Part shown: positions 1,498-3,474 of the stretch, in pieces
Position numbering within the stretch: the stretch's first letter is position 1
Layout: every line of letters begins with the position of its first letter
DNA from: a virus
Lineage: Duplodnaviria; Heunggongvirae; Uroviricota; Caudoviricetes
Direction: 5' to 3' (one strand)
Length of the DNA: 13,194 bases
Virus record (IMG/VR): IMGVR_UViG_2740892230_000011
Made by a program: the position numbers and the translations under genes
Notes under the pieces: model-generated
Told to the model about the DNA's origin: nothing
What the model saw: only the letters and a program-made list of their open reading frames with translations
The model's database searches: none

Positions 1498-1611
1498 CCG
1501 TAACCTAATGTTTTTATTTAAAACACCCCCTGAAAAGAAAGGAAACGACAGGTGCTGAAAACGGGCTTTTTGGCCTTTGTCGTTTCCTTTCTCTGTTTTT
1601 GTCCGTGGAAT
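1498..1611 (+). promoter_or_regulatory. cosB-like terminase binding region, copy 1 (lambda-type R2 and R1 elements)
   Basis: ccgtaacctaatgtttttatttaaaacaccccctgaaaagaaaggaaacgacagg...cgtttcctttctctgtttttgtccgtggaat matches the lambda cosB region, including gaaaggaaacga (R2) and cgtttcctttct (R1). Bounded by N-runs on both sides. Confidence 0.7.
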
Positions 1612-1621
1612 NNNNNNNNNN

Positions 1622-2262
1622 CTGAAGTTGCCAGGCATTTAAGTCTGACCGATCGCCAGCTTCGCAGATTGCAGAAATTGCCGGGTGCCCCGATATCGAA
1701 TAAGCGAGGGCAACTGGATCTGGATGCCTGGCGCGATTTTTACATATCGTATCTGAGGAGAAGTAAAAACGATGTGCCTGATGGCGATAGCGAAGACGAC
1801 TATGAGGAGAAATTGCTTATTGCCAGATGGGAACTGACAGCAGAACAGGCTGTTACACAGCAGTTAAAAAATGAGGTGTCAAAAGGAAAACTTATTGACA
1901 CCGGGTTCTGTATTTTTGCCCTCAGTAAGCTGGCAATGGNNNNNNNNNNAGAAAAGTTACTCATTGCCAGATGGAAGTTGATCGAAGAACAGGCAATCGC
2001 CCAGCAATTAAAAAATCAGGCGTCCGAAGGAAAGCTTATTGACACCGGATTCTGTATTTTTGCCCTCAGTAAGCTGGCAATGGCGTTATCCAGTACGCTT
2101 GATTCCATCCCTTTATCCATGCAGCGACAGTTTCCTGATTTAACACCGCGCCATCTTGACCATCTGAAAACCCTTATTGCTAAGGGGGCAAATCAGTGTG
2201 CGCGGGCAGGGGATAAATTACCGGATTTACTCGATGAATATATCAGAGCAACAACTGAATAA
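1622..2262 (+). CDS. Terminase small subunit, divergent Nu1 homologue; start codon masked by N-run, internal N-run with diverged duplication
   Basis: C-terminal half aligns with lambda Nu1 (TGFCIFALSKLAMALSSTLDSIPLSMQRQFPDL vs ETAFCTFVLSRIAGEIASILDGLPLSVQRRFPEL; ending LLDEYIRATTE vs [10 protein letters not shown]). N-terminal region (EVARHLSLTDRQLRRLQKLPG...) is not lambda-like. The track start at 1552 is cosB sequence read in frame and is spurious. True length is about 185-190 aa once the duplicated segment across 1940-1949 is removed. Confidence 0.8.
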
Positions 2263-3474
2263 TATGATGGCTGCCGTTTCGGTTGCGCTGCAGCCTCTGG
2301 TCAGGGTTGTACCAATGACGGCAGTTGAATGGGCTGATCAAAATTATTATCTGCCTAAAGAATCCTCATACGGTGAGGGCGAATGGAAAACGCTGCCATT
2401 CCAGATCGCCATTATGAACTGTATGGGTAACGACCAGGTTCGCACGGTTAACCTGATTAAATCTGCCCGTGTTGGTTATACAAAGATGTTGCTGGGGGTG
2501 GTCGGGTATTTTATTGAGCATAAATCCCGAAACAGTCTGCTTTTTCAGCCCACGGATTCTGCCGCTGAAGATTTTATGAAGTCTCACGTGGAGGCGACGA
2601 TTCGGAACGTGCCATGCCTGAAAGACCTTTCCCCATGGCTGGGTCGTAAACATCGTGACAATACTCTCACGCTGAAACGCTTTTCATCGGGCGTCGGTTT
2701 CTGGTGCCTGGGCGGCGCTGCCGCCAAAAACTACCGTGAAAAATCCGTGGACGTGGTCTGCTATGACGAACTTTCCTCGTTCGAGCCGGATGTCGAAAAA
2801 GAGGGCTCGCCAACCCTGCTGGGGGATAAGCGTATTGAGGGGTCGGTGTGGCCAAAATCCATTCGCGGCTCGACGCCTAAAATCAAAGGCTCCTGCCAGA
2901 TCGAAAAAGCCGCTAACGAGTCGGCACACTTCATGCGTTTTTATGTGCCCTGTCCGCACTGTGGGGAGGAGCAGTATCTGAAATTTGGCGATGAGTCCAC
3001 GCCTTTTGGGCTTAAATGGGAGAAGGACAGCCCTGAAAGTGTTTTCTACCTCTGTGAACATCATGGCTGCGTGATCCATCAGTCTGAACTGGACCAGAGC
3101 AACGGGCGGTGGATCTGTGAAAACACGGGCATGTGGACCCGTGACGGTCTGACGTTTTTCAGCGCTGCGGGTAATGAAATTCCGCCGCCGCGCTCCATCA
3201 CTTTCCATATCTGGACGGCGTACAGTCCGTTCACCANNNNNNNNNNCCGGGGTGATGAAATTCCGCCGCCGCGCTCCATCACGTTCCATATCTGGACGGC
3301 GTACAGTCCGTTCACCACCTGGGTACAGATTGTCTATGACTGGCTGGATGCACTGAAAGATCCCAACGGCCTGAAAACCTTTGTGAACACCACGCTGGGC
3401 GAGACCTGGGAAGAGGCTGTGGGCGAAAAACTCGATCACCAGATACTGATGGATAAGGTTGTGCGTTACACGGC
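2234..3474 (+). CDS. Terminase large subunit homologue (gpA-like), N-terminal ~410 codons; 3' end cut by N-run, internal N-run at 3237-3246
   Basis: Starts MNISEQQLNNMM... at ATG 2234, overlapping the small-subunit stop as in lambda Nu1/A. Colinear with lambda gpA ([95 protein letters not shown]) but clearly diverged, most strongly in the first ~35 residues. The track start at 2177 is an upstream extension. Confidence 0.85.

Follow-up and report, generated by a model that had tools for sequence, protein, structure and literature searches.

Side-by-side terminase modules in a lambdoid prophage scaffold: very probably an assembly artefact that includes a divergent module of a common E. coli prophage type

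Does a second, divergent terminase module lie directly upstream of the lambda-type Nu1-A pair in this virus genome, and is it adapted to a packaging specificity of its own? The window, i.e. the whole stretch of DNA analysed here, is 13,194 nucleotides long (Caudoviricetes; IMG/VR record IMGVR_UViG_2740892230_000011). A reading made from its letters alone had placed the divergent module at 1498-3474. It had considered both a join made by scaffolding and a real truncated remnant.

The window has 13 runs of N, each exactly 10 bases long. Three of them cut the interval 1498-3474 (1612-1621, 1940-1949 and 3237-3246) and two flank it (1488-1497 and 3475-3484). What had been read as one module was in fact four short contigs, 1498-1611 (S3), 1622-1939 (S4), 1950-3236 (S5) and 3247-3474 (S6). 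The segments are named S0 to S13 throughout; S2 is 1345-1487 and S7 begins at 3485. Coordinates of the features are given in Table 1.

Table 1. Features of the cos-terminase region of the window. L001 and L002 are the prophages of strains 2013C-3264 and E. coli O103:H2 12009, respectively.
Feature	Position	Strand	Basis or remark
10-N runs	982-991, 1335-1344, 1488-1497, 1612-1621, 1940-1949, 3237-3246, 3475-3484		six further runs downstream
cosN and first 45 bp of left chromosome end	1127..1171	+	1127 = lambda bp 1 (GGGCGGCGACCT); 1130-1171 = lambda J02459.1
Divergent cosB, allele 1	1172..1334	+	three AACCGGACATG sites, small-subunit start
AACCGGACATG site 1	1176-1186, inverted		bp 50-60 from cohesive end
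AACCGGACATG site 2	1234-1244		bp 108-118
AACCGGACATG site 3	1264-1274		bp 138-148
GTG start and first 4 codons of divergent small subunit	1322-1334	+	allele 1
Second allele of divergent cosB and small-subunit start	1345..1487	+	duplicates 1193-1334, 93% identity; 100% identical to L001 8674-8816
Second lambda-type cosB allele (I1, R2, R1), interleaved	1498..1611	+	93.7% identical to 3488-3598
Divergent small subunit, allele A, residues 5-110 of 169	1622..1939	+	100% identical to O103:H2 12009 (L002 8813-9130)
Divergent small subunit, allele B, residues 67-169 and stop	1950..2262	+	alignments, translation
Divergent large subunit (gpA/gp2 type), residues 1-334	2234..3236	+	overlaps small-subunit gene end by 29 nt
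Other allele of same large-subunit gene, residues ~312-386	3247..3474	+	first 71 nt duplicate end of previous piece; 99.1% identical to L001 10217-10444, where the gene runs on to 642 codons
10-N placeholder, joint of divergent-module contigs and lambda-type contig	3475..3484	.	N-run listing
Lambda-type cosB (from I1), Nu1 and gpA	3485..6049	+	opening part of a 6,346-bp contig
Lambda-type Nu1	3604-4149	+	181 aa; full-length Pfam Phage_Nu1 match
Lambda-type gpA	4124-6049	+	641 aa; GpA_ATPase and GpA_nuclease

The two open reading frames of the interval, 1622-2262 and 2234-3474, both run in frame through a gap. The former contains the peptide EKLLIARW...FCIFALSKLAM twice, and the copies are two alleles: residues 67-110 of allele B duplicate 1807-1939 (133 nt) with 83% DNA identity. 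The true length of this gene is 169 codons in complete relatives. The latter contains a repeated peptide starting G(N/D). The sequence-only reading had treated both frames as gene products. The peptides that it quoted are encoded where it placed them (EVARHLSLTDRQLRRLQKLPGAPISNKRGQ from 1624 and MNISEQQLNNMMAAVSVALQPLVRVVPM from 2234), but each frame spans a gap and carries an internal duplication, and these gaps and duplications had been missed.

At eight gaps, the sequence just before the Ns aligns again with that just after them (83-97% identity), and three additional overlapping pairs were found among non-adjacent segments. Among the 11 homologous junction pairs, 10 had a left segment ending exactly 34 identical bases past its last difference; the eleventh had 32 identical bases, with indels. 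The right segment opened on a differing base in all 10 comparable pairs. This pattern, which marks all 13 gaps, is the layout of de Bruijn graph nodes with k = 35, the assembler and the k value being deduced from the junction pattern alone. The offsets between consecutive overlapping segments were all multiples of 3. We tentatively attribute them to nodes that start on variants mostly at third codon positions and end a fixed 34 nt after such variants.

The S6/S7 junction (3474/3485), used as a synthetic query without the Ns, was found in none of 5,426 complete E. coli genomes. A genuine tandem duplication would show unbroken sequence at the joint and would recur in finished genomes, whereas here the two modules meet at 10 Ns that bear the graph-node signature. 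The best places for the whole window reached a coverage of only 83%, equal to that of the lambda-type segments by themselves. S0, the first 180 nt of S1, S3 and S7-S12 form a colinear tiling of the E. coli 55989 prophage, and the lambda-type module (3485..6049, in S7) is 99.7% identical to this 55989 / O104:H4 prophage. S13 extends the tiling at only 85.7% and is closer to a second prophage type (89.3% to L001). The tail of S1, together with S2, S4, S5 and S6, tiles the cos-terminase region of L001 and L002, at 96.5-100%.

The divergent allele was detected in 1,932 of the 5,426 genomes, with a coverage of at least 80% in 1,288 of them and in at most five places per genome. In complete genomes it adjoins its own W, portal, protease, D, E, FI and tail genes. 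The same module occurs in the PhiR12 phages (PV340549-PV340554), to which the window pieces are 92-93% identical over cosB and the small and large subunits, and in the 12009 and 2013C-3264 prophages (96.5-100%). The RefSeq entries for the latter type are WP_000235436.1 and WP_000235447.1 (small subunit) and WP_012816750.1 (large subunit). In all of these relatives the gene order and the 29-nt overlap are as in the window. There the genes are intact (169 and 642 codons), with the head and tail genes that belong to them coming next, whereas the window has only fragments from overlapping alleles. The module is an already catalogued, widespread and ordinary terminase of a very common E. coli prophage type, and the two modules belong to separate prophages in real genomes.

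These results bear directly on the headline of the sequence-only reading, that the divergent module sits directly upstream of the lambda-type one. As a physical arrangement this is not supported, given the assembler signature at the joints and the absence of the junction from all 5,426 complete genomes; the same two observations favour the scaffolding join that had been offered as an alternative. The reading had itself named two findings that would speak against it. One, a catalogued allele with complete head genes elsewhere, was borne out by the PhiR12 phages and by 1,288 or more complete E. coli genomes. The other, a scaffolding chimera, we count as found from the node signature and the missing junction.

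Segment 1498-1611 had also been assigned to the divergent module. A 69-nt query starting at 1498 had lambda R3 on one side and the start of a lambda-type Nu1 on the other in 39 of 39 IMG/VR contexts, and none of these 39 contigs contains N runs. As a lambda-type Nu1 always follows, the segment was ruled out as the divergent module's cos. Its end lies 34 identical bases past its last difference from 3485-3598. The last base of S2 and the first base of S4 are adjacent in L001, L002 and PhiR12_1, where the 1345-1487 allele is followed directly by CTGAAGTTGCC, the sequence at window position 1622. Therefore, S3 interrupts what is continuous sequence in these genomes. The cos that does belong to the divergent module is further upstream than the interval first proposed, at 1127-1334, with its second allele at 1345-1487.

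We consider it very probable that the window is a short-read de Bruijn scaffold (k = 35) and that the side-by-side terminase arrangement is an assembly artefact, in which two prophage types were joined. The source would have carried several lambdoid prophages with cosQ-cosN and many near-identical stretches in common, and because of this sharing the assembly graph would have forked and formed bubbles where the prophages were near-identical. Positions 1127-1171 are common to both prophage types and are the fork point of the graph. One fork would be the lambda-type packaging and head module, from 3485 onward, plus the allele 1498-1611. The other would be 1172-1487 plus 1622-3474, representing the second prophage type, in at least two alleles, from its cosB through the small subunit into the first part of the large one. 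The scaffolder would then have written out the two forks, and the two arms of every bubble, in series, with 10-N minimum-gap placeholders. The order of S6 and S7 departs from a simple coordinate sort, which makes the exact behaviour proposed for the scaffolder less certain.

Tandem lambdoid prophages do occur, and the order of the scaffold pieces is colinear with the gene order (cosB, small subunit, large subunit). Both points would suit a real arrangement, in which a truncated second lambdoid packaging remnant (cosB, small subunit and the 5′ two-thirds of gpA) lies just upstream of the lambda-type module, for example after tandem-prophage recombination. However, all boundaries are 10-N runs with the 34-base node signature, the alleles are duplicated internally (133 and 68 nt), and a lambda-type cosB allele separates two bases that are neighbours in real genomes. 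As, in addition, none of the 5,426 complete genomes has the junction and the window is nowhere covered beyond 83%, a real arrangement is extremely improbable. It might also be supposed that alleles from different E. coli strains were co-assembled from a mixed culture or metagenome, with the tandem still an artefact. The similarities of S7 to 55989/O104:H4 (99.7%), S4 to O103:H2 12009 (100%) and S2 to 2013C-3264 (100%) fit this idea. Against it, single complete genomes carry the divergent module in up to five places and the lambda-type module in up to seven, at least 741 genomes match both types by counting (1,932 + 4,235 - 5,426), and genomes of Shiga-toxigenic E. coli (STEC) carry ten or more lambdoid prophages (PMC2669165). 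Therefore, one genome suffices for the pattern, and we regard a mixture of strains as improbable.

A somewhat unlikely origin, but one with more in its favour, is a pseudomolecule in which contigs were ordered on a reference with 10-N spacers and paralogous prophage contigs were mapped to one reference prophage. The segments follow the homologous coordinates of one prophage fairly well, and there are nested or out-of-order pieces (S10 within the range of S9, S3 between S2 and S4). However, S7 (reference position 5042) comes after S4-S6 (equivalent to ~5170-6780), unlike a plain coordinate sort. The adjacency is artificial under both a pseudomolecule and read-pair scaffolding. For work on draft E. 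coli prophage regions, the artefact that we favour carries a caution: exact 10-N runs can serialise alleles of different prophages, and serialised alleles can mimic tandem or truncated modules and even yield ORFs that stay in frame across an internal duplication. Public databases have many "partial" entries of the same small subunit, which suggests a recurring break.

As a terminase of the second prophage type, the divergent module has a left chromosome end of the lambda/21 type. The lambda-type 12-base cohesive-end sequence and its flanks are present: 1127-1138 reads GGGCGGCGACCT, 1130-1171 is 100% identical to bp 4-45 of lambda J02459.1, and over its first 45 bp the chromosome end does not differ from that of lambda. 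The cosB that follows has different sites from lambda. Its 11-mer AACCGGACATG has nine matches in the window compared with 0.29 expected, and none of 200 shuffles reached nine; eight of the nine cluster in 1176-1434. The sites were invariant in five sequences, and the spacers varied. Three of them, predicted to be binding sites, follow cosN and precede the small-subunit gene, and the first is inverted relative to the second. A consensus scan, which is a weak test, found no match to the IHF consensus WATCAANNNNTTR within one mismatch in 1127-1334 or 1345-1487, and one match in the lambda-type cosB of the same window. An A/T-rich tract is present in the divergent cosB.

The layout of this cosB resembles that of phage 21, with a site at bp ~50 and an oppositely oriented one at bp ~108 (R3 50-65, R2 107-122 and R1 150-166 in phage 21, compared with bp 50-60, 108-118 and 138-148 here). 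However, the repeats bear no relation to the R sites annotated in phage 21, and the third site is oriented as the second, not the first. The packaging specificity of phage 21, with a gp1-type domain and 21-type R sites, was not found in this module, in which only the gp2 body is 21-like.

In the small subunit, a Nu1-like C-terminal part and a different N-terminus had been recognised from the sequence, and this view held. The Pfam family Phage_Nu1 (PF07471) was matched with 70.5 bits (L001) and 67.9 bits (L002) against a cut-off of 30, the scores being those of the full-length relatives. The match is limited to profile positions 62-163, in the C-terminal two-thirds of the protein; positions 1-61 had none, leaving the N-terminal ~48 residues unmatched. 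Compared with the lambda-type copy in the window, the N-domain is 18% identical, the core 37% and the C-tail 39%. Overall, the divergent small subunit is 34% identical to lambda gpNu1, lacks a match to the Nu1 N-domain profile and is 12 residues shorter, with a gap in the wing region of the alignment. It is 32% identical to phage 21 gp1 (18% in the N-domain). The N15 small subunit is probably lambda-like in its N-terminal sequence, unlike the divergent one.

Searching the solved structures with the small-subunit sequence gave only a chance-level match (E = 0.79), and Foldseek with the full-length model found nothing at E ≤ 0.001. The AlphaFold model of the N-domain (pLDDT ~80) has the order strand, helix, turn, helix, loop, strand, helix, a helix-turn-helix flanked by strands. 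Its best Foldseek match was the RdfS excisionase, a weak one (49 columns, rmsd 2.8, probability 0.91, E = 0.39), and the others (RacA, BldC and Xis), also weak, were likewise winged helices of the Xis/MerR type.

The gene order is lambda-like as well. The gpA gene begins at 2234, ahead of the end of the small-subunit gene at 2262, and the same is seen in L001, L002 and PhiR12_1; the overlap is like that in lambda. The full-length L001 large subunit matched GpA_ATPase (PF05876, 191.4 bits) and GpA_nuclease (PF20454, 242.3 bits), and the residues present in the window (1-334 and ~312-386) cover the ATPase domain and reach into the beginning of the nuclease domain. The gpA fragment is 98.5% identical to L001 gpA in amino acids. 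It is colinear with the lambda-type gpA of the window (70% over 334 aa), and the first 40 residues are the most diverged block (52%, compared with 57-92% elsewhere in the fragment), which agrees with what the sequence-only reading had said of its N-terminus. Against phage 21 gp2 the fragment has 85% identity, 37% in the first 40 aa and 80-100% thereafter. For the divergent gpA as compared with gp2, identity is 91.6% overall, 95-100% across most of the length and 37% in the first 40 residues; with lambda gpA it is 65%. A mosaic joint lies just past the N-terminal ~25-40 codons, downstream of which gpA is 91.6% identical to gp2.

The earlier proposal that the terminase is co-adapted and differs in its cosB specificity is supported at the level of sequence by a distinct cosB, a replaced, putatively DNA-binding N-domain in the small subunit and the mosaic joint in gpA. 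The divergent module would work like lambda terminase. The short, putative helix-turn-helix N-domain of the small subunit would bind the three AACCGGACATG sites of its own cosB, the C-tail would engage the ~40 N-terminal residues that match it in an otherwise 21-type large subunit, and the large subunit would nick a cosN identical to that of lambda. A similar case is N15 / Monarch, in which cosN was kept and the recognition element of the small subunit and the R sites were changed (Feiss et al. 2015, PMC4669245). N15 represents the third documented packaging specificity, and this paper lists only lambda, 21 and N15 as documented (PMC4669245). The AACCGGACATG sites at the positions of R3, R2 and R1, the shortened helix-turn-helix N-domain, which looks unrelated, and the matching N-terminus on a 21-type gpA might constitute a fourth, a suggestion that we make tentatively and with a little less than even confidence.

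We found no description of PhiR12, or of this cosB in the literature on O157 prophages. With its distinct cosB and recognition domain, the module lends itself to specificity tests in the style of lambda and 21, which would be a modest extension of a well-understood system. The module is abundant in STEC prophages. If it is true that its specificity is distinct, this would govern the cross-packaging of defective prophages in STEC prophage pools.

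The window contains 13 runs of exactly 10 N, which split its 13,194 bases into 14 segments (S0-S13). Neighbouring segments overlapped across eight of the 13 gaps, where the 3′ end of the first re-aligned with the 5′ start of the second at 83-97% identity, and three more overlaps were found between non-adjacent segments (S3/S7, S10/S9 and S9/S11). The scaffold therefore carries one homologous stretch twice, as two alleles flanking a gap. In 10 of the 11 homologous junction pairs, the left segment finished with a run of exactly 34 identical bases at its 3′ terminus; the eleventh had 32, and its alignment contained indels. 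The right segment opened with a mismatch in all 10 comparable pairs. When a de Bruijn graph node is written out, it begins with a variant base and stops k-1 bases past the last variant. The 34-base endings and variant-base starts thus imply a de Bruijn graph with k = 35 as the probable origin of the segments. A minimum gap of 10 N is the output of several short-read scaffolders at zero or negative estimated distance.

The six downstream junctions (see table) had allelic overlaps and 34-base endings of the same kind as elsewhere in the window, and segment 10953-11086 was nested within the range of 10440-10942. Homologous-position offsets in consecutive overlapping segment pairs were all multiples of 3 (147, 153, 144, 81, 66, 183, 138 and 78), likely because nodes begin on variants and stop 34 nt after, with variants mostly at third codon positions.

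Features of the window and of the divergent cos site
Feature	Position	Strand or orientation	Remark
ORFs matching DUF1398 / YlcI/YnfO family genes annotated in the 55989 prophage	72-497 and 539-772	(-)	upstream of cos
Candidate small-subunit site AACCGGACATG, copy 1	bp 50-60 from cohesive end	inverted	downstream of lambda-identical cosN
Candidate site, copy 2	bp 108-118 from cohesive end		downstream of lambda-identical cosN
Candidate site, copy 3	bp 138-148 from cohesive end		downstream of lambda-identical cosN
Divergent small-subunit GTG start	bp 196 from cohesive end
Six further 10-N junctions	gaps at 9831, 10430, 10943, 11087, 11454, 12160 (window 9831-12169)		capsid (E)/FI/FII/Z region

The sequence-only reading had placed a divergent terminase module at 1498-3474, directly upstream of the lambda Nu1-A pair. 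This interval comprises four separate segments (1498-1611, 1622-1939, 1950-3236 and 3247-3474). Translation showed that the quoted small-subunit and gpA peptides are encoded there. The frame of the small-subunit ORF 1622-2262 continues through the gap 1940-1949 and that of the gpA ORF 2234-3474 through the gap 3237-3246. The former contained residues 67-110 twice, as two alleles with 83% DNA identity, and the latter repeated a 22-residue stretch. The real genes have 169 (small subunit) and 642 (large subunit) codons in the prophage loci of E. coli 2013C-3264 (L001) and O103:H2 12009 (L002). Public databases hold many "partial" small-subunit versions from draft assemblies, such as P0011 (134 aa, 583 member sequences) and P0039-P0049 (126-129 aa); the same break seems to affect this gene in many draft assemblies.

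The segments tiled onto two prophage types. S0, the first 180 nt of S1, S3 and S7-S12 formed a colinear tiling of the lambda-type prophage of E. coli 55989 / O104:H4, to which S7 was 99.7% identical over 6,346 bases. The tail of S1, S2, S4, S5 and S6 tiled the other type, exemplified by L001 and L002, at 96.5-100% identity. S13 (12170-13194) continued the 55989 tiling at 85.7%, although it was nearer to the other type (89.3% to L001). The last base of S1 and S2 (...GCTACGCAGA) abuts the first base of S4 (CTGAAGTTGCC...) in L001, L002 and PhiR12_1, a phage with the same terminase and cos; therefore S3, which lies between them in the window, is an intruder. The 69-nt variant in S3 lay between lambda R3 and the lambda-type Nu1 start codon in all 39 IMG/VR contigs holding it, a lambda-type cosB context that removes 1498-1611 from the divergent module. 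It follows from the tiling and the placement of S3 that in the source both the lambda-type cosB and the other type are represented by two or more alleles each.

The lambda-type cosB alleles (1498-1611 and 3485-3598) differed at seven positions, some of which, by eye, fell within a stretch matching the IHF site (TAACCTAATG vs TAACTTAATG) and some within an R2-like stretch (GGAAACGAC vs GGAAGCGAC). In the window, lambda-type gpA (4124-6049) reads through as an intact ORF of 641 codons, whereas the 99.7% identical 55989 copy (L003 5681-7605) is annotated as frameshifted; the aligned lengths of contig and 55989 are one base apart (6,346 vs 6,345). Upstream of cos, 610-981 was common to the other prophage type too (90-97% identity), which partly explains the graph tangling there.

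Among 5,426 complete E. coli genomes, the divergent allele was present in 1,932 (coverage of at least 80% in 1,288), at up to five places per genome. In both genomes inspected (L001 and L002), its own W, portal, protease, D, E, FI and tail genes came next. The lambda-type contig matched 4,235 genomes of the same set, so at least 741 match both types. For STEC, a complement of ten or more lambdoid prophages per genome is known (PMC2669165). The best places for the whole window reached only 83% coverage, as much as the lambda-type segments make up by themselves. A synthetic 300-nt query for the 3474/3485 junction (150 nt either side of the gap 3475-3484, Ns removed) was found at 80% coverage or more in none of the 5,426 genomes. 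With this junction absent, and with the divergent module beside its own head and tail genes in real genomes, a physical position directly upstream of the lambda-type module is not supported; the tandem order is an artefact of assembly. Positions 1127-1171 are identical to lambda bp 1-45, the shared cosQ-cosN end. The assembly graph would fork past this end, and one scaffold would have received both forks. The divergent module is a prophage allele that is already catalogued, common and annotated in databases.

With at most one mismatch allowed, the window has nine occurrences of the AACCGGACATG 11-mer, where 0.29 would be expected; eight of the nine were inside the two divergent cosB alleles. 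Its three sites were invariant across five sequences, with differing spacers. Phage 21 has annotated sites at 50-65 (R3), 107-122 (R2, inverted) and 150-166 (R1), and its gene starts at 189. Divergent sites 1 and 2 agree with these in position and relative orientation, but the third is oriented like the second, not the first. A consensus scan of the divergent cosB found no IHF consensus within one mismatch.

The divergent small subunit matched Pfam Phage_Nu1 only at profile positions 62-163. With the lambda-type and 21 proteins it shared 18% of residues in the N-domain, 31-37% of those in the core and 39-42% of those in the C-tail, compared with 54%, 59% and 32% between lambda-type and 21 in matching regions. 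The large subunit was 91.6% identical overall to phage 21 gp2, but its first 40 residues reached 37%, against 80-100% for each later block; DNA similarity to phage 21 ran from about gpA codon 25 onward. This pattern indicates that cosB, the small subunit and the gpA N-terminus move as one unit. In lambda/21 genetics, these are the parts required to match one another. The module's own cosB sites, the diverged small-subunit N-domain and the first 40 residues of gpA thus support a putative co-adapted terminase with different cosB specificity, although as sequence it is not new. Here, as for the encoded peptides, the sequence-only reading was borne out, but its tandem arrangement was not.

An AlphaFold model of the divergent small subunit (27 homologues in the alignment) had a mean pLDDT of 70.7, and about 80 over the first 50 residues. 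Its N-domain ran as strand, helix 4-10, turn, helix 15-22, loop, strand and helix 38-55. No PDB entry matched the model at E <= 0.001 in Foldseek. Locally, the N-domain came closest to RdfS excisionase (49 columns, rmsd 2.8 Å, probability 0.91), RacA, BldC and mycobacteriophage Xis. The gpNu1 DNA-binding domain is of the MerR/Xis-type winged-helix class, and such a fold is plausible for the modelled N-domain.

Lambda, 21 and N15 have the only documented specificities among characterised lambda-like phages (Feiss and colleagues, PMC4669245). We found no published description of the divergent cosB or of the PhiR12 phages (PV340549-PV340554), whose genome records give K-12 MG1655 and E. coli C as hosts. 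The divergent module may define a fourth specificity of this kind. A third N-terminal type (MAFLLNKSDMASSIGISVQAFDKWGVPPVERRGREVFYD...) was seen on the same C-terminal two-thirds of the small subunit (P0056, P0060, P0069, P0073 and P0083; hosts E. coli, Klebsiella and Salmonella). Such fusions suggest that the body for oligomerisation and gpA binding is common, and that DNA-binding domains are exchanged on it as cassettes.
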